DNA of 64,000 bases from Candidatus Eiseniibacteriota bacterium (GTDB lineage Bacteria; Eisenbacteria; RBG-16-71-46; JABDJR01), in the NCBI GenBank assembly GCA_963762255.1, contig CAVXKA010000001.1:704001-768000 (forward strand). The letters are read 5' to 3'. The position numbers were made by a program, and so were the translations under genes. Positions 25,756-33,771 of this stretch are shown one piece after another. Below the pieces are notes generated by a model. That model did not search any database, was not told the origin of the DNA, and worked only from the letters and a program-made list of their open reading frames with translations. How positions within the stretch are numbered: the first letter of the stretch is position 1; each line of letters begins with the position of its first letter.

Positions 25756-27078
25756 GTGACCAAGGCCGAAATCCTCAAGATCTGCAAGACGGAAGGCGTC
25801 CGCTTCATGCGGCTCCAGTTCACGGACATTCACGGAGCCAACAAGAACGTCGAGCTGCCGGCCAGCCAGTTCCAGAAGGCCTTGGACGGAGAGATCATGT
25901 TCGACGGATCCTCGATCGAGGGGTTCACCCGCATCGAGGAGTCGGACATGCTCCTCCACCCGGATCTGACCACGTTCCGGATCTTCCCGCTCGACGGCGG
26001 TCGCGGGAAGGTGGCGCGGCTCGTCTGCGACGTGAAGATGCCGGACGGAGCCGACTTCGACGGCGATCCCCGCACCTGCCTCCGACGCATGACGGAGAAG
26101 GCGAAGAAGCTCGGGTACACGCTGATGGTCGGTCCCGAAGTGGAGTTCTTCCTCTTCCTGTTCGACGCGGACGGCGCGCCCTCGGTGAAGACCCACGACG
26201 CAGGCGCCTACTTCGATCTCGCCCCCATCGACAAGGGGGAAGAGTGCCGCCGGGACATCGTGCAGGCCCTCGAGGCGATGGGCTTCGAGGTGGAGGCCGC
26301 GCACCACGAAGTGGCCCACGGCCAACACGAGATCGACTTCCGCTACGGCGAGGCGCTGCACACCGCGGACAACGTAGCCACGTTCCGCTTCCTGGTGCGG
26401 CACATCGCCCGTCAGCACGGGCTTCACGCCACGTTCATGCCCAAGCCGATCTTTGGCCAGAACGGCAGCGGCATGCACTGCCACCAGTCGCTCTTCAAGG
26501 GGGACAAGAACTCCTTCTACGACCCGAAGGGCGACTACGAGCTGAGCAAGGTGGCCCTCCAGTACATCGCCGGCATCCTGCGGCACGCCAAGGGGTTCGT
26601 GGCCATCACCAACCCCATCGTCAACTCCTACAAGCGGCTGGTTCCGGGCTACGAGGCCCCCACCAACGTCGCGTGGTCGGAGCGCAACCGTAGCCCGATG
26701 GTCCGCATCCCCGCGCGCCGCGGTGTCGGCACCCGGTGCGAGGTGCGCCTCCCCGATCCCTCCTGCAACCCCTACCTCGCCTTCGCGGTGATGCTGGCGG
26801 CGGGTCTCGACGGGATCGAGAAGAAGATGGATCCCGGCCCCCCCGTGAACAAGAACGTCTTCCGGATGAGCGAGCGGGAGAAGCGGCGTCACAAGATCGA
26901 CGACCTTCCTTCGACGCTTTCGGAAGCGATCGACGAGCTGGAGAAGGACAAGGTGATCCTGGACGCGCTGGGCCCGCATCTCGCCCAGAGCTACGTCGAC
27001 GCGAAGAGGCAGGTCTGGACGGAGTTCCTGGCCCAGGTGCATCCTTGGGAGCTGGATCGGTATCTGGCGTACTACTAA
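25756..27078 (+). CDS. glnA: Glutamine synthetase type I (GSI-alpha-like)
   Basis: FDGSSIEGF, GPEVEFFLF, HHEVAHGQHEI, ATFMPKP, NGSGMH, NSYKRLVPGYEAP, NRS, EVRLPDP.CNPYL. Confidence 0.96.
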   Translation: MTKAEILKICKTEGVRFMRLQFTDIHGANKNVELPASQFQKALDGEIMFDGSSIEGFTRIEESDMLLHPDLTTFRIFPLDGGRGKVARLVCDVKMPDGADFDGDPRTCLRRMTEKAKKLGYTLMVGPEVEFFLFLFDADGAPSVKTHDAGAYFDLAPIDKGEECRRDIVQALEAMGFEVEAAHHEVAHGQHEIDFRYGEALHTADNVATFRFLVRHIARQHGLHATFMPKPIFGQNGSGMHCHQSLFKGDKNSFYDPKGDYELSKVALQYIAGILRHAKGFVAITNPIVNSYKRLVPGYEAPTNVAWSERNRSPMVRIPARRGVGTRCEVRLPDPSCNPYLAFAVMLAAGLDGIEKKMDPGPPVNKNVFRMSEREKRRHKIDDLPSTLSEAIDELEKDKVILDALGPHLAQSYVDAKRQVWTEFLAQVHPWELDRYLAYY

Positions 27079-27141: not shown

Positions 27142-27900
27142 TCAGGGAGGGGTGAGCGGGGAGAACATCTCCGGCGCGATCTCCGGGTTGGTCTTCACGG
27201 ATCGGAACCGCACGATCGCGGTCTTCACACCCCCGGCGTAGCTGTCCTCGCGGAACGGGAAGAGGACTCCGTGCACCCACCGGAACTCGCTCAGGTCCAC
27301 CGCCGAGTCCGTGGGTGTGGGGCTCGAGAGCCGCATGGAAACGCGCTCGATGCGGTGCTTCCTGGGGTCCACGTGGTACTCGAGCGACGTGCCCCCACTG
27401 AGCGGCAACTGCAGGACCACGCGCTCCTTGTCGTCCGGATCCATCCGCACGAGGCTGCTCTCCTGCTCGGCGAGGCGCAGCGGCAGATCCAGCCGTGCGG
27501 CCTCCAGCCGAAGCGTCTCGAGGAACACGCCTGTCACCGGTTGCAGGTGCCGGTCGTCGGGGCCGCCCCAGCCCTCGTCGCCGCGCACAACCCGTAGCTC
27601 GCCGCGGTCGGGGTAACGCAGTTCAATCCGAAGCCCGTCGGATCGCTCGCGCCAGCGCACGATGTGCCCCTGCTCGCGATGCCCGGTCGCGGTGAGGATT
27701 CCCTCGGCGCGGTAGGCGCGCACCTTGCCGAGCGCGGCGGCGCCGCCGTACGCATCGAGGATCTCCTGCACCAGGTCGTGCACGTCGGCGCGCGCCTTCG
27801 CCTGCGAATCGGCGGAGCCCCGCCCGCCCTGACACCCCACGGTGGCAAGGAGAATCGCCACGGCAAAGCCCGTCTGTGTTGCGCGGCGAGCGAGTTGCAT
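27142..27900 (-). CDS. Hypothetical lipoprotein (LolA-like fold possible)
   Basis: Lipobox TVGC; AYGG..AL, EFRWVHGVLFPF, NPEIAPEMF. Confidence 0.65.
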   Translation of the reverse strand: MQLARRATQTGFAVAILLATVGCQGGRGSADSQAKARADVHDLVQEILDAYGGAAALGKVRAYRAEGILTATGHREQGHIVRWRERSDGLRIELRYPDRGELRVVRGDEGWGGPDDRHLQPVTGVFLETLRLEAARLDLPLRLAEQESSLVRMDPDDKERVVLQLPLSGGTSLEYHVDPRKHRIERVSMRLSSPTPTDSAVDLSEFRWVHGVLFPFREDSYAGGVKTAIVRFRSVKTNPEIAPEMFSPLTPP

Positions 27901-28007
27901 GGTGCACATCCTAGCGCGTCGGGACGGGATCGCGCCTCTCCTATGGTACGATCTTCGCGTCGCACGGAACCGCCACCGGCAGGACGTCCTGGACCGATCA
28001 CCAACCG

Positions 28008-29360
28008 ATGAACCACCGCCTGACCCTCCTTCTCATCCTTCTCATCGTCGTAGCGGCGCTCGCCTCCAGCGGGGCCTTGCGCGGACAAATGCGGCAGGGC
28101 GAGAACCTCACGATCTTCTTCACCGGAGACGACGCGGGCGAGATCGCCCCCTGCGGGTGACCGGTCGAAGACTACGGTGGGGTGTCCCGGAGGGCCGCCT
28201 TCTTCGACACGTTGCGAACCGCGGGCTGGGAGTTCCTGGTGGTCTCAACCGGGGATCTGGCCCCGTTCGAAGGGATGAATTCGCAGGGGTTGCTCCGCAC
28301 CGAGACGCTGGCCAAGGCCATGGCGCTCATGCGCTACGACGCGATTGCGCTGGGAGACCACGATCTCGAGCCCGGCCCGACCTTTGTGAAGGACTTGGTC
28401 GGGTGGCTCGGCCAACCCGTTCTCGCCACCAACTACGCGCTGCCCGATCCGGCGGCCAGCGTGCGAACCCGCCTGACTCAAGTGCGAGGCAAGAAGGTCG
28501 GGCTCCTCGCATTCCTCGATCCCGACTTGGCCGAAGACCGCGCGCCGTGGGTCACGGTGGAGCCGTTCGCGAGCGCGCGGGCCGTGGTCGACTCGCTGCG
28601 GGGCCGTTGCGACGTGCTGGTCGCGCTGGCCCACCTCGGCGACGAGAGCAAGGTGGCGGAGCTTCACGCGCTCTACCCCGGCATCGATCTCTTCCTTCTC
28701 GGCCACGAGGGCGCGATGCCGGCCAGGCTCTATCGGCTGGACCGTTCGGCGGTGATGGGGGGCGGGGCGCGCGGCCGGCACCTGGGGCGGACCGACATCT
28801 CCTTCGGCGCGGACGATTCGATCCAGAACTTCGAGGGGGCCTATCTTCCCGTGATCATGGCCTGGGGTCGCCGCTCGTGGGTTGACACGTTGCTCGACGA
28901 TTACTACGAGCGCGTCAAGCGGCTCACCATGACCGCGGAGTTCGAGCAGGAAATCCTGAACTCGCTGGAGGAGCCTACGGTCGAGTACGTCGGGAACGAG
29001 GCGTGCTCATCCTGCCATGAGGCCGAAACCCGGCAGTGGGCCTCGACGCCGCACGCGCGGGCTCGCGAGACGCTCGTGAAGGCCAAGTCCGACCACGACA
29101 CGCAATGCCAGTCCTGCCACAGCACGGGGTTCGGCTATCGCACCGGGTTCGCCACCCCCAAGAGCACGCCCGCACGGTACAACGTGGGATGCGAGGCGTG
29201 CCACGGCGCGGGGGCGGAGCACGCGAAGAATCCGGCCGCACCGTACGGGGCAACGGGTGAGGCCCTGTGCGTCACCTGCCACGACGCGCACAACAGTCCG
29301 AAGTTCGACTACGCAACCTATCGCCCCAGGATCGTGCACGGCACCGCGAAGACGAAGTAG
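28008..29360 (+). CDS. Selenoprotein: secreted UshA/5'-nucleotidase-like metallophosphoesterase domain with CxU motif, fused to tetraheme cytochrome c (c554-like)
   Basis: ATG 28008 gives a signal peptide and LTIFFTGDDAGEIAPCG-UGA(28158-28160)-PVEDYGGVSRRA, in frame with track ORF 28182-29360. Motifs STGDL, LGDHD, LAHLG, LGHE; four CXXCH (CSSCH, CQSCH, CEACH, CVTCH). Confidence 0.85.
28161..28190 (+). promoter_or_regulatory. Candidate bacterial SECIS hairpin
   Basis: CCGG...GAC(U)AC-GGUGGG-GUGUC...CCGG. Upper stem has a bulged U; the G-rich loop starts at the 16th nt after UGA. Confidence 0.65.
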
Positions 29361-29377: not shown

Positions 29378-29629
29378 CTAGTGCTTCTTGAGCGCGCGGT
29401 AGACGATAAGCAGCAAGATCGCGCCCCCCACCGCCAAGGCAAAGCTGCGGAAGTCGAGCCCGCTCACCGTGCCCCACCCGAGGCGCGAGCCGATGAACCC
29501 ACCGATCAGGGCGCCGGCGACGCCAAGAAGCATGGTGATGATGCACCCGCCCGGGTCCCTGCCCGGCATGAGGAGCTTGGCCACAGCGCCCGCCACGAGC
29601 CCCAAGACGATCCAGTAGAGAATGTTCAT
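29378..29629 (-). CDS. GlsB/YeaQ/YmgE (transglycosylase-associated) membrane protein
   Basis: WIVLGLVAGAVAKLLMPG, LGVAGALIGG, AVGGAILLL. Confidence 0.92.
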   Translation of the reverse strand: MNILYWIVLGLVAGAVAKLLMPGRDPGGCIITMLLGVAGALIGGFIGSRLGWGTVSGLDFRSFALAVGGAILLLIVYRALKKH

Positions 29630-31756: not shown

Positions 31757-32578
31757 TTACTCCTCGTCCTCGGGCGCCGCGGGGGGCGCCGGCGGCGCGG
31801 GCGCGTCGTCGTCATCCATCCACCACGGTCCGGGCCCCATTGGAGCGAAGCCGGGAAGATCGCCGCCCGGACACCCCATCCCCATCAGCGGGGCCTGATC
31901 GTCAACTGGAGATCCCAACCCCGCGCCAAAGCCTCGGCCCATGCCACGGCCACGGCCGACGCCCTGGCCCGCGCAGCAGCCGGGCTTGCAGGACACGCCC
32001 GCGCCGGGCCCCTGGCCCATGCCGGGTGCGCAGCTTCCCTGACCCATGCCGCGCCCCTGACCCATCCCGGCACCGCCGCGCCCTTGCATCCGCCCATGCC
32101 GGGAGTGCATGCCGTTGCGCGGCGCATCGCGGCGCATCTGCTTCAACTGCTCGCGCTGCTCCGTCGTGAACACCTCGCGGGTGGAGAGCCGCGCTTCCAG
32201 CCTCGCGTCGGCAGCCGCGGCCTGCAGGGCGCTCATCTCGCGATGCAGCGTGCGGATCTTGTCCTTGTCGAGGTTGTCGTTCATGAACTCGACGCGGATC
32301 TGCGCTTGAAGATCCGCCATCTTGCCGTGGCGCAGGACCTGCTGGCGCTGCGTGTCCTCGCGGATCGCGGCCAGCTTCTCCTTCTGCGCATCGGAGAGGT
32401 TCAGCTTTTCGGCCGCCTGCTCGCGCATCCCCATCTGGCGCATCTCCATCTTCGGCGCCGGCAACCCGTCGCGGACCCGTCCCCGCCGCGGTTGCGCATC
32501 GGCGATGGAAATCGCGGCAATGCTTGCGACGATCGCCAGCGCTCCTACCGTCATCATTCTTCTAGTCGTGCGTGTCAT
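31757..32578 (-). CDS. Spy/CpxP-like periplasmic protein with Gly/Met/Cys-rich tail
   Basis: Signal peptide, LNLSDAQ and FTTEQR (LTxxQ) motifs, GMGQG repeats. Confidence 0.8.
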   Translation of the reverse strand: MTRTTRRMMTVGALAIVASIAAISIADAQPRRGRVRDGLPAPKMEMRQMGMREQAAEKLNLSDAQKEKLAAIREDTQRQQVLRHGKMADLQAQIRVEFMNDNLDKDKIRTLHREMSALQAAAADARLEARLSTREVFTTEQREQLKQMRRDAPRNGMHSRHGRMQGRGGAGMGQGRGMGQGSCAPGMGQGPGAGVSCKPGCCAGQGVGRGRGMGRGFGAGLGSPVDDQAPLMGMGCPGGDLPGFAPMGPGPWWMDDDDAPAPPAPPAAPEDEE

Positions 32579-33105
32579 GGTCTTTCGTTCCTTTCGTTCA
32601 TCCGGCCCGGACTCTCGGTTTCCGGCCCCCATTCCATCTCGTGAATCTTGCGGCGCTGTTCGGGGGTGAAGATCGCGCCTTCGCGGAGCATGGCCTCCGC
32701 CACCAAACTGTCGAGCTGTGCTTGCAGCATGTTCACCATCCGCGCCTGCCGGTGGACCAACTCCCGATCCTCCTCGAGAAGCGCCTTGCGCATGAGCGTC
32801 CGCTCGCGCAGGAGGTCCTCGCTGCGGGCGCGTATGGCCTCGCGCAGCTCCTCCAGCGAAGCACGCAACTGTGTTTCCTGCTCCGGCGTGAGATCGAGAG
32901 CCTGGCTCAGCCGATCCACCCGCCGCTGCGGCCACTGGCGCATGAGGCCCATAGGCCTCTGCCCGAACCGATGAAGAGGGCCGGGCGAGATCGCCGGCGG
33001 GGGGGGCGCCCGGTGCACATCCGACCAATGCACGATCGCGCCCGAGACGAATCCCACGTTGAGGGCAATCGATACGACAAGGAGGATCCACAGCCCGCGT
33101 CTCAT
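32575..33105 (-). CDS. Periplasmic heavy-metal sensor/ZraP-CpxP-like protein
   Basis: LLVVSIALNVG N-terminal anchor, LDLTPEQ and FTPEQR; ATGA overlaps with both neighbours. Confidence 0.8.
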   Translation of the reverse strand: MRRGLWILLVVSIALNVGFVSGAIVHWSDVHRAPPPPAISPGPLHRFGQRPMGLMRQWPQRRVDRLSQALDLTPEQETQLRASLEELREAIRARSEDLLRERTLMRKALLEEDRELVHRQARMVNMLQAQLDSLVAEAMLREGAIFTPEQRRKIHEMEWGPETESPGRMNERNERP

Positions 33106-33626
33106 CGCTGCGCCTCCTCGCCCGTCGACTCGGTGTTGGCGCCGAGATCCTCGTCGAGATACGCGGCGGCGAGCGATCCCGACGGGGTGTCCAGAAGCGC
33201 GGAGAGGTCGAGCGCTTCCGCGCCGTTGCCGGTGTCGCTGACGACCGTATCCGACCCCGCTCCGAGCAGCGCGCGTCCCGCTACATGTCCACCCACCAAC
33301 GCGATCGCCATGAGACCCAATCCCGCGTAGGCCACGGGGGTGTGCAGGGCCTCGCCCATCGCGATCCGCCAGCGGGGCCGCAGCACCGGCACCGTGGTGC
33401 CGCCGCGCGGGCGGTCCAAGGCTTCCGCGACCCGCGGCCACAAGGGCGTGTCGGGTAGGGTCGAGGCCGGGTCGGTTTCCAGAACCGCCCACATGACCCG
33501 GGTCGCGGAAAGGAGATTGCGGCAGCGCGCGCATTCGGTGACGTGGTCCTCGGCTTGCCGGGCCTCCTCGGGGGAGGCCTCGCCAAGGGCCAATCGCGCT
33601 GCCTGTGTGTCGTTGAAGTGCTTCAT
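33102..33626 (-). CDS. Zinc-finger (zf-HC2) transmembrane anti-sigma factor
   Basis: H...HVTECARC (HxxxCxxC), one TM helix, directly downstream of the ECF sigma gene. Confidence 0.85.
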   Translation of the reverse strand: MKHFNDTQAARLALGEASPEEARQAEDHVTECARCRNLLSATRVMWAVLETDPASTLPDTPLWPRVAEALDRPRGGTTVPVLRPRWRIAMGEALHTPVAYAGLGLMAIALVGGHVAGRALLGAGSDTVVSDTGNGAEALDLSALLDTPSGSLAAAYLDEDLGANTESTGEEAQR

Positions 33627-33771
33627 GTTCCTTCACCCGCGCGCTCGCCCGACCGGTGGGGAGCGCTCTAGGTACACCCGGCATAACCCGCCACCGGGGA
33701 GAATCCTGCGGGGCGGGAGGATCTTTTTCGGAGAGGGCGACATCGGGCGCCGGACCCGCCGCCGCCCGGGA

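Follow-up and report, generated by a model that had tools for sequence, protein, structure and literature searches.

We analysed a stretch of 64,000 nucleotides (hereafter the window, whose 64-kb numbering is used for all coordinates) from a Candidatus Eiseniibacteriota bacterium (assembly GCA_963762255.1, CAVXKA010000001.1, positions 704,001-768,000 of the forward strand), in which the gene for an UshA-like protein with a multiheme C-terminus is interrupted by an in-frame UGA. The host assembly is of the metagenome type, consists of 3 contigs, is 93.6% complete and has a GC content of 67%. Under translation table 11, the locus yields two open reading frames (ORFs) in one frame of the forward strand, the first starting with ATG and comprising 50 codons (28008-28160) and the second starting with GTG and encoding 392 amino acids (28182-29360). 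The sole interruption between them is the TGA at 28158-28160, and the ATG at 28008 is the first start codon past the upstream in-frame stop. If the TGA is read through, the frame encodes 450 amino acids with a hydrophobic N-terminus, MNHRLTLLLILLIVVAALASSG..., and the TGA stands in the context APCG-U-PVEDYGGVSRRA.

An earlier note on this DNA, made from the letters alone, had proposed that the two ORFs are one 450-amino-acid gene hidden by a selenocysteine (Sec) codon, and this proposal is upheld by the cysteine found at the UGA column of the Cys-form homologs and by a full set of Sec machinery in the host genome. Read from its sequence, the locus is a single gene for a predicted exported selenium-containing protein that has been mis-annotated through its Sec-UGA. 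We are almost certain that the product is a genuine selenoprotein, and we put the probability that it is a true Sec protein belonging to the UshA-like PCGU kind at about 0.85.

The UGA column in related proteins

How should the UGA be read? In an alignment of 19 full-length homologs (25-55% identity), the residue at the UGA column is Cys in all 19 and never Trp, and both C49-G50-C51 and G57-G58 are invariant. Residues 47-51 of the read-through product, A-P-C-G-U, occupy the place of the P-C-G-U/C motif that follows the first strand, within the stretch F-F-T-G-D-D-A-G-E-I-A-P-C-G-U-P-V-E-D-Y-G-G-V-S-R-R-A. A six-frame search of 40 relatives together with the host genome recovered the family in all 41 genomes of the class. 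Among the best 20 loci, 19 reach the UGA column, with TGA in 16 and a Cys codon in 3. After 36 further places had been added to this set, and locus L027, which falls short of the column, had been left out, the class total was 56 copies from 41 genomes, with TGA in 47, TGC in 7 and TGT in 2. For other lineages, one genome per species was scanned, which returned 80 loci from many phyla; 71 copies reach the column, with TGA in 27, TGC in 26, TGT in 16 and two more shifted by the aligner owing to an insertion right after the TGA, so that 29 carry TGA and 42 carry Cys.

Global reassignment of TGA to Trp or Gly was considered and rejected, since the homologs carry Cys and never Trp or Gly at this column, and since in the host genome TGA closes 1883 of the 3156 open frames of at least 400 codons, more than any other stop codon. 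The Sec machinery that the earlier note had implied for this lineage was recovered in full, each component above its cut-off: profile searches returned selA (541 bits), selB (366 bits) and selD (386 bits), and the tRNA-Sec gene selC scored 67.5 bits and was called by ARAGORN as tRNA-SeC with anticodon TCA. The selD gene (G000:C2:841489-842421, minus strand) contains one in-frame TGA of its own, and SelD is probably itself a selenoprotein in this genome.

The public gene call in the host genome (P0002) is even shorter than the table-11 ORF, with 373 amino acids at 100% identity over 83% of the query, and the calls P0003-P0004 likewise begin downstream of the TGA. These calls, together with the two table-11 ORFs, would fit a pseudogene or two separate genes, the TGA being a nonsense codon or a true stop and the 392- or 373-residue protein being the only product. 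We consider this very improbable. The TGA lies at exactly the same column in the 47 Sec-type class copies, with Cys in the remainder, and it is followed by a covarying hairpin specific to Sec copies (see below). Moreover, the N-termini of the orthologs align from residue 1, with 55-60% identity over the 50 codons upstream of the TGA, and the product of the downstream ORF alone would have no signal peptide although its four CXXCH motifs require export. An error of sequencing or assembly that conceals a true TGC or TGT is less credible still: the metagenome-type assembly in 3 contigs leaves it as a general possibility, yet TGA occupies the column in all four orthologous loci of separately assembled genomes, contigs from three independent runs span 28158-28160 with no difference there among those listed, and the Sec-specific hairpin is present.

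The run contigs, which come from relatives and are 85-99% alike, were obtained from one RNA-library run and two DNA runs, and no run contains more than 0.21 of the sampled words. They show presence and not expression, and the RNA-library contig that crosses the UGA (X20) is no proof of transcription. Among the differences listed, none falls within 28140-28217 and 25 fall within 27965-28139, which is only a hint that the former stretch is under extra constraint.

We also observed that position 45, four residues before Cys49 (codon 28140-28142), is Glu in 41 of the 47 class Sec copies and 12 of the 24 from elsewhere, compared with 0 of 7 Cys copies in the class and 10 of 41 elsewhere. This pattern may reflect function or only ancestry.

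The hairpin downstream of the UGA

Bacterial selenocysteine insertion sequences (SECIS) usually place their loop 16-37 nt from the UGA. In the window, a hairpin of 8 pairs with one U.C mismatch (28185/28195) starts 19 nt after the UGA, with its loop at 28 nt; it is encoded within G-G-(L)-(A)-R-R-A-x codons, and the loop reads G-G-A/C in Sec copies. From each copy we took the 39 nt that begin with the first Gly codon and aligned them, the anchor being taken from the protein alignment and not from structure. Across the 47 class Sec copies, 90.6% of the cells of a nine-pair helix are paired, and this share falls to 28.6-55.6% when the 3′ partner is slid by 1-3 columns. Covariation in the Sec copies is 0.343 against 0.185 in shuffles, and none of 500 shuffles reaches the observed value. 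The 9 Cys copies behave differently: 54.3% of their cells are paired, which is no better than controls (25.9-51.9% when the 3′ partner is slid), their covariation does not exceed that of shuffles, and 244 of 500 shuffles reach their paired share.

Individual pairs illustrate how the helix varies. Pair 9-21, formed by the third bases of a Leu codon and an Ala codon, occurs in Sec copies as G-C (23), C-G (13), G-U (5), U-G (2) and A-U (1), and pair 12-18 occurs as C-G (41) and U-A (3), both changes of the latter being synonymous (GCC to GCU together with CGG to CGA). Because pairing and silent covariation are found in the Sec copies and not in the Cys copies, the hairpin is Sec-specific and is kept by compensatory silent changes. 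Its distance is also regular, in that the GG anchor follows the TGA by 18 nt in 37 of the 43 Sec copies that were anchored and by 15 nt in the other 6; in four close orthologs that we added by hand, it again lies at 18 nt.

The earlier note had described another element, a hairpin with a bulged U and a GGUGGG loop at about 28165-28190. Folding did not recover it (minimum free energy -4.2 kcal/mol, z +1.05), and the positions of its stem change without compensation in four orthologs. By the comparative evidence, the SECIS is instead the hairpin just downstream (Table 1). The observation made in the earlier note therefore held only in part, because the hairpin it described was the wrong one; its frame, its motifs and its UGA context were all recovered.

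Domains, metal site and family

The N-terminus from 28008 had been described as a signal peptide, and inspection by eye makes this probable, since a basic n-region precedes a hydrophobic core of 15 residues. Most of the 19 homologs have an equivalent hydrophobic N-terminus, although a few are truncated there. A structure model (AF2, 36 sequences) is confident overall (pLDDT 89.2, pTM 0.86), shows residues 3-20 of the signal peptide region as a helix, and places CGU in the loop that joins the first strand to the first helix (residues 40-58), in which the confidence dips to 68-80.

A family profile searched against PDB sequences matched 7d0v (1.5e-29), 2z1a (7.2e-29), UshA (1ush, 1.1e-18) and SoxB (2wdc, 6e-12) over residues 34-308. 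The N-terminal domain thus shows homology along about 275 residues (E 1e-18 to 1e-29) to E. coli UshA, CD73 and bacterial 5′-nucleotidases (1ush, 4h2f, 2z1a, 7d0v), with which it shares the GG-x-ARRA start of a helix, the N of 'ATN' and the G-D motif. When the profiles are aligned, the Sec column falls on the first Cys in the C..C loop of venom 5′-nucleotidase. Unlike these enzymes, the window protein has A43, D117 and G235, and it carries a tetraheme domain in place of the substrate-binding domain; a Pfam scan recognised the cytochrome domain only, with no match to the C-terminal 5′-nucleotidase domain PF02872 at E<=0.1.

We mapped the metal ligands at the level of motifs by alignment to 2z1a and venom 5′-nucleotidase, taking the roles of the residues as dimetal ligands and catalytic His from UshA. 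Four of the seven ligand positions (D41, D83, H210, H233) and the catalytic H118 are kept. Three are replaced, namely the His of motif I by A43, the Asn of GNHE by D117 and the last ligand, His or Gln, by G235, so that the set expected of an active dimetal phosphoesterase (D, H, D, N, H, H, H/Q and the catalytic His) is incomplete. The altered motifs pointed out earlier, TGDDAG for TNDxHG and GDHD for GNHE, are both present.

In the family at large, these columns are not conserved. Among the 47 class Sec copies, D41 is kept in 23, H233 in 35 and His at column 118 in 4; the residues listed for column 43 include no His, and Leu or Met predominates at column 210. The metal-ligand columns of the other copy sets are similarly degenerate. 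The residues that do not vary are different ones: two sets of 54 and 65 protein-spanning copies show no variation at C49, G50, G57, H349, H405 or the four CXXCH motifs; column 51 holds U or C except in 2 copies mis-aligned by an insertion, column 58 is Gly in all but 1, and column 61 is Arg or Lys throughout. As judged from these alignments, conservation in the family does not fall on the canonical dimetal ligands.

The four CXXCH motifs claimed for the C-terminus were all found, and they lie in a c554-type domain (PF13435, 50.1 bits against a cut-off of 20.8; PF09699, 31.3 bits). The family profile matched cytochrome c554 (1bvb) over residues 327-427 at 7.1e-20, and the motifs have the same c554-type arrangement as in the Nitrosomonas protein. 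Only three further conserved His are candidate distal ligands, of which H349 and H405 are invariant and H444 is present in at least 90% of copies; this number would fit one heme without a distal His, as in c554. Nitrosomonas c554 is a free electron carrier, whereas the cytochrome of the window protein is a domain of a larger enzyme, and the link of Nitrosomonas c554 to hydroxylamine oxidation has no counterpart here. The host genome contains three CcsA/CcmF-type genes and two DsbD/CcdA-type genes. A c554-type module is also fused to peroxiredoxin or redoxin domains in six uncharacterised proteins (P0028, P0029, P0043, P0052, P0058, P0059), which are 31-42% identical to the matched segment of the query, this segment being only its C-terminal 26% in four of the six. 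The catalytic domain of these fusions has the thioredoxin fold, unlike that of the window protein; by analogy, they suggest a general design in which a heme wire feeds a Cys or Sec centre.

To which family does the protein belong? The best NCBIfam match is NF041198 (UshA_like_PCGU, "UshA-like (seleno)protein"), at 224.2 bits. When the halves were scanned apart, residues 1-300 matched profile positions 15-271 (111.4 bits) and residues 301-450 matched positions 399-519 (105.6 bits), the latter covering the C-terminal four-CXXCH domain. The profile has 519 positions, compared with the 450 residues of the window protein. The P-C-G-U motif, the signal peptide with the UshA-like N-terminal domain and the four C-terminal CXXCH motifs are common to both. 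Of 20 relatives of the same length (27-34% identity), 5 pass the curated cut-off, at 275.6-363.4 bits, and the window protein matches such relatives in length and architecture; its own clade scores 214-224 bits and retains more ancestral metal ligands than most of the NF041198-type family. A second family, NF049981 (UshA-like selenoprotein family 2, CxxU), scored 56.9 bits against a cut-off of 140, and the motif here is CxU. On these profile matches, the window protein is a close relative and sub-threshold member of the known NF041198 family and not a new kind of protein. The earlier note had presented the fusion of an UshA-like CxU domain to a tetraheme cytochrome; the fusion itself is borne out by NF041198, PF13435 and 1bvb, but as an architecture it is not new. 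Because the NF041198 profile already contains the four-CXXCH domain, the heme fusion belongs to the catalogued family.

The note was also right that UshA-like CxU selenoproteins had been reported without a function. They are listed in tables of PMC2398784, PMC9312934 and PMC13188914. Zhang and Gladyshev (2008; PMC2398784) gave 76 Sec sequences of a COG0737 UshA-like CxU selenoprotein in GOS data and counted it among the few major families that lack homology to thiol oxidoreductases; the protein is also tabled in reviews of 2022 (PMC9312934) and 2026 (PMC13188914), and the word 'heme' is absent from the latter. Our literature search, outside which lay subscription papers and supplements, returned no paper on the function of the UshA-like selenoprotein or on Eisenbacteria selenoproteins, and nothing that joins selenocysteine, multiheme and nucleotidase.

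The family is large and spans many phyla, and it has stood in selenoproteome tables since 2008 without a function. In a search of 1.84 billion cluster representatives, 603 clusters (50% identity) matched the query at E<=1e-30, partial matches included, and 4283 at E<=1e-10. Records that carry the family are titled Candidatus Eisenbacteria (including a 59%-identical ortholog), Krumholzibacteriia, Scalindua and other Planctomycetota, Acidobacteriota, Nitrospirota, Fibrobacteraceae, Myxococcota and others. The lineage of the window protein, a close relative of which is titled Candidatus Eisenbacteria, holds many copies of the family, and 47 of 56 use Sec. Gene callers cut the protein at the Sec codon, and from the resulting calls of 373-392 amino acids the signal peptide is missing, as is the sole invariant catalytic motif. 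Nearly all copies in the class suffer this truncation; therefore, annotations systematically hide the family, which may be the most numerous selenoprotein family of these genomes. What this study adds is a SECIS model backed by synonymous covariation, the finding that the phosphoesterase metal site is not the conserved feature of the family, and the DsbA-like and DUF1573 fusion partners, together with the failure to find the classical disulfide-forming enzymes in the host genome at its 93.6% completeness.

Possible function and genomic surroundings

What might such a protein do? We infer a periplasmic redox enzyme that couples a Cys/Sec centre to a heme wire. Comparison with other copies shows SelB-dependent decoding of UGA-51, directed by the short hairpin in the G-G-x-x-R-R-A codons. 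The 450-residue precursor would be exported by the Sec pathway, and the four hemes would be attached to the c554-like domain by the cytochrome c maturation system encoded in the genome. The N-terminal domain would have kept the 5′-nucleotidase fold and given up the dimetal phosphoesterase site family-wide, with the Cys49-Gly-Sec51 pair in the loop after the first strand, at the place of motif I of metallophosphoesterases. This pair might cycle between selenol/thiol and selenenylsulfide, exchanging single electrons with the four-heme wire, which would connect it to the periplasmic cytochrome pool. As a guess, the likeliest reaction is of the reductase or peroxidase type, with electrons supplied by the hemes, or else the reverse, an oxidation of thiols. 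A periplasmic redox role gains plausibility because the metal ligands have been lost family-wide; since CG(U/C), the four CXXCH motifs and two His are invariant and the metal ligands are not, thiol/selenol redox chemistry wired to the hemes would be favoured. Taken as a whole, this mechanism remains tentative, and we rate it at somewhat less than even odds.

Several observations weigh against the reading as a selenoprotein of the NF041198 type with such a redox function. First, the window protein falls short of the curated NF041198 cut-off of 275 bits, and the middle of that profile (positions 272-398) is unmatched by it. Second, the window hairpin taken alone (-10.7 kcal/mol, z 0.26) is no stabler than shuffled sequence, and a scan of 28100-28300 against Rfam found no relevant family, the only match being mir-23 by chance (E 3.6). 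Folding of the 63 nt after the UGA likewise gave z 0.21; single-sequence folding is uninformative at 67% GC, and the support for the SECIS is comparative, not thermodynamic. Third, the window clade, unlike most of the family, keeps four of the seven metal ligands and His118, and a metal site that includes the Cys/Sec pair is possible in this clade. Fourth, there is no redox partner gene among the neighbours in the window, and when 1778 neighbour ORFs from 81 loci were clustered, only lineage-specific neighbours emerged (LptD, HU, DciA, Maf, the T2SS ATPase, DUF1573, DUF4159 and a thioredoxin-HEAT protein), with no partner common across phyla.

The third of these points bears on the alternative that survives best, in which the protein is a true selenoprotein whose N-terminal domain is still a metal-dependent hydrolase resembling SoxB and cleaving sulfur esters. 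Cys49 or Sec51 would then replace the lost His as a metal ligand or nucleophile, and the hemes would take up the electrons of a coupled oxidation. SoxB is a periplasmic sulfur redox enzyme of the same superfamily, and the retention of D41, D83, H118, H210 and H233 in the window clade, as well as the position of the Sec column in the loop adjoining motif I, would suit such a hydrolase. The matches to SoxB are weak, comprising TIGR04486 (E 5.9e-5; 21.5 bits against a cut-off of 550), 2wdc (already given) and a score of 73.9 bits for the relative P0088. SoxB has a C-terminal domain and neither hemes nor a CxU motif, unlike the window protein, and its site is an intact dimanganese centre. Across the family, it is the CG(U/C) motif and not the set of ligand columns that is invariant, the C-terminal substrate-binding domain of 5′-nucleotidases and SoxB is missing (no PF02872 match), and the immediate neighbourhood showed neither sox nor other sulfur-oxidation genes. 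We regard this alternative as unlikely.

A narrower proposal is that the protein is a periplasmic thiol oxidase, which makes disulfides, passes the electrons through the hemes to the respiratory chain and stands in for DsbB or VKOR. In the host genome, searches found no DsbB, VKOR, DsbA (PF01323) or Thioredoxin_4; in the class, DsbB was found in none of the 41 genomes and VKOR in 7, against 41 of 41 for the UshA-like family. Four of 18 long relatives carry a fused DsbA-like domain, and a thioredoxin-HEAT protein neighbours six Planctomycetota-type loci. However, VKOR or DsbB is present in 17 of 40 carriers from other phyla, and there is therefore no mutual exclusion. The DsbB and VKOR counts also stand without a background rate and come from kin that are not independent, many anaerobes simply do without oxidative folding, two of the four DsbA matches lie under the Pfam cut-off, and the several paralogs per genome argue for varied substrates. 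We consider a thiol oxidase distinctly improbable. The more elaborate version, in which a dead phosphoesterase scaffold has been turned into a periplasmic thiol/selenol:cytochrome c oxidoreductase that, in lineages such as the Eisenbacteria-type class, makes up for an absent DsbB/VKOR-like oxidative arm of disulfide chemistry in the envelope, is just as doubtful; Sec would have been chosen in such an oxidoreductase because it tolerates one-electron steps to heme.

The features of the gene are collected in Table 1.

Table 1. Features of the Sec-UGA gene, in window coordinates
Feature	Position	Strand	Basis
Complete coding sequence, 450 codons + TAG stop, Sec-UGA at codon 51	28008..29360	+	ORF translation, ortholog N-termini
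Probable Sec-type signal peptide, about residues 1-27	28008..28088	+	Judged by eye
UshA/5′-nucleotidase-like domain of predicted calcineurin fold, incomplete metal site, about residues 33-300	28104..28907	+	PDB profile match, NF041198
Cys49-Gly50-Sec51 motif, TGC GGG TGA	28152..28160	+	Alignment; C-G-C in 20/20 aligned sequences
SECIS hairpin: 5′ arm 28180-28188, loop GGA 28189-28191, 3′ arm 28192-28200	28180..28200	+	Comparative, 47 Sec copies
c554-type tetraheme cytochrome c domain, about residues 321-450	28968..29357	+	PF13435, PF09699, 1bvb, NF041198
CXXCH motifs C333, C367, C395, C421	29004-29018, 29106-29120, 29190-29204, 29268-29282	+	Read-through translation

The target gene stands by itself. 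Upstream, at a distance of 98 nt, lies a divergent gene (27142-27909, minus strand) for a lipoprotein-like protein of 255 amino acids with the N-terminus ...LLATVGC; it has no Pfam or NCBIfam match and is conserved at 50-58% identity beside the target in 4 of 4 orthologous loci. Beyond it is glnA (25756-27078, plus strand), and the order of glnA, the lipoprotein-like gene and the target is kept in the same 4 loci, all of which are close kin. On the downstream side, a convergent Transgly_assoc gene (29378-29629, minus strand) is followed by a gene for a TPR protein.

Further copies of the family occur in the host genome outside the window, at G000:C3:533784-535118 (minus), G000:C1:592966-593782 (plus), G000:C1:306770-307612 (minus) and G000:C2:125639-126340 (plus). 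They comprise a second full-length copy with PCG-TGA, one with PCG-TGA that seemingly lacks the heme domain, and two Cys forms (TCGC and PCHC). In many relatives, the full-length copy adjoins a second UshA-like gene, sometimes without a heme domain and sometimes with a TGA of its own (for example, G007:C29:1230206-1232693, G005:C263:341-2815, G003:C14:3119670-3122081, G013:C1:2986680-2989572 and G020:C72:3137-6133). At loci L028 (G002:C77) and L030 (G003:C8), the nearest relative is 41-42% identical and of the Cys form (CGC and CNC, respectively), and the match stops short of the heme domain, at about residue 310. Of the 7 genomes in that taxonomic family, these two alone have a VKOR match, which is only a lead, with n=2 and close kinship. 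The long relatives with DsbA-like thioredoxin domains are P0082, P0096, P0139 and P0167, two of them above the Pfam cut-off, and 8 of the 18 scanned (P0093, P0100, P0135, P0136, P0150, P0173, P0180 and P0219) carry DUF1573 Ig-like domains. Finally, two partly overlapping candidate ORFs on the minus strand, 2.4 kb downstream of the target (31757-33091 and 32575-33684), contain motifs resembling those of LTXXQ/Spy-CpxP-like periplasmic chaperones.

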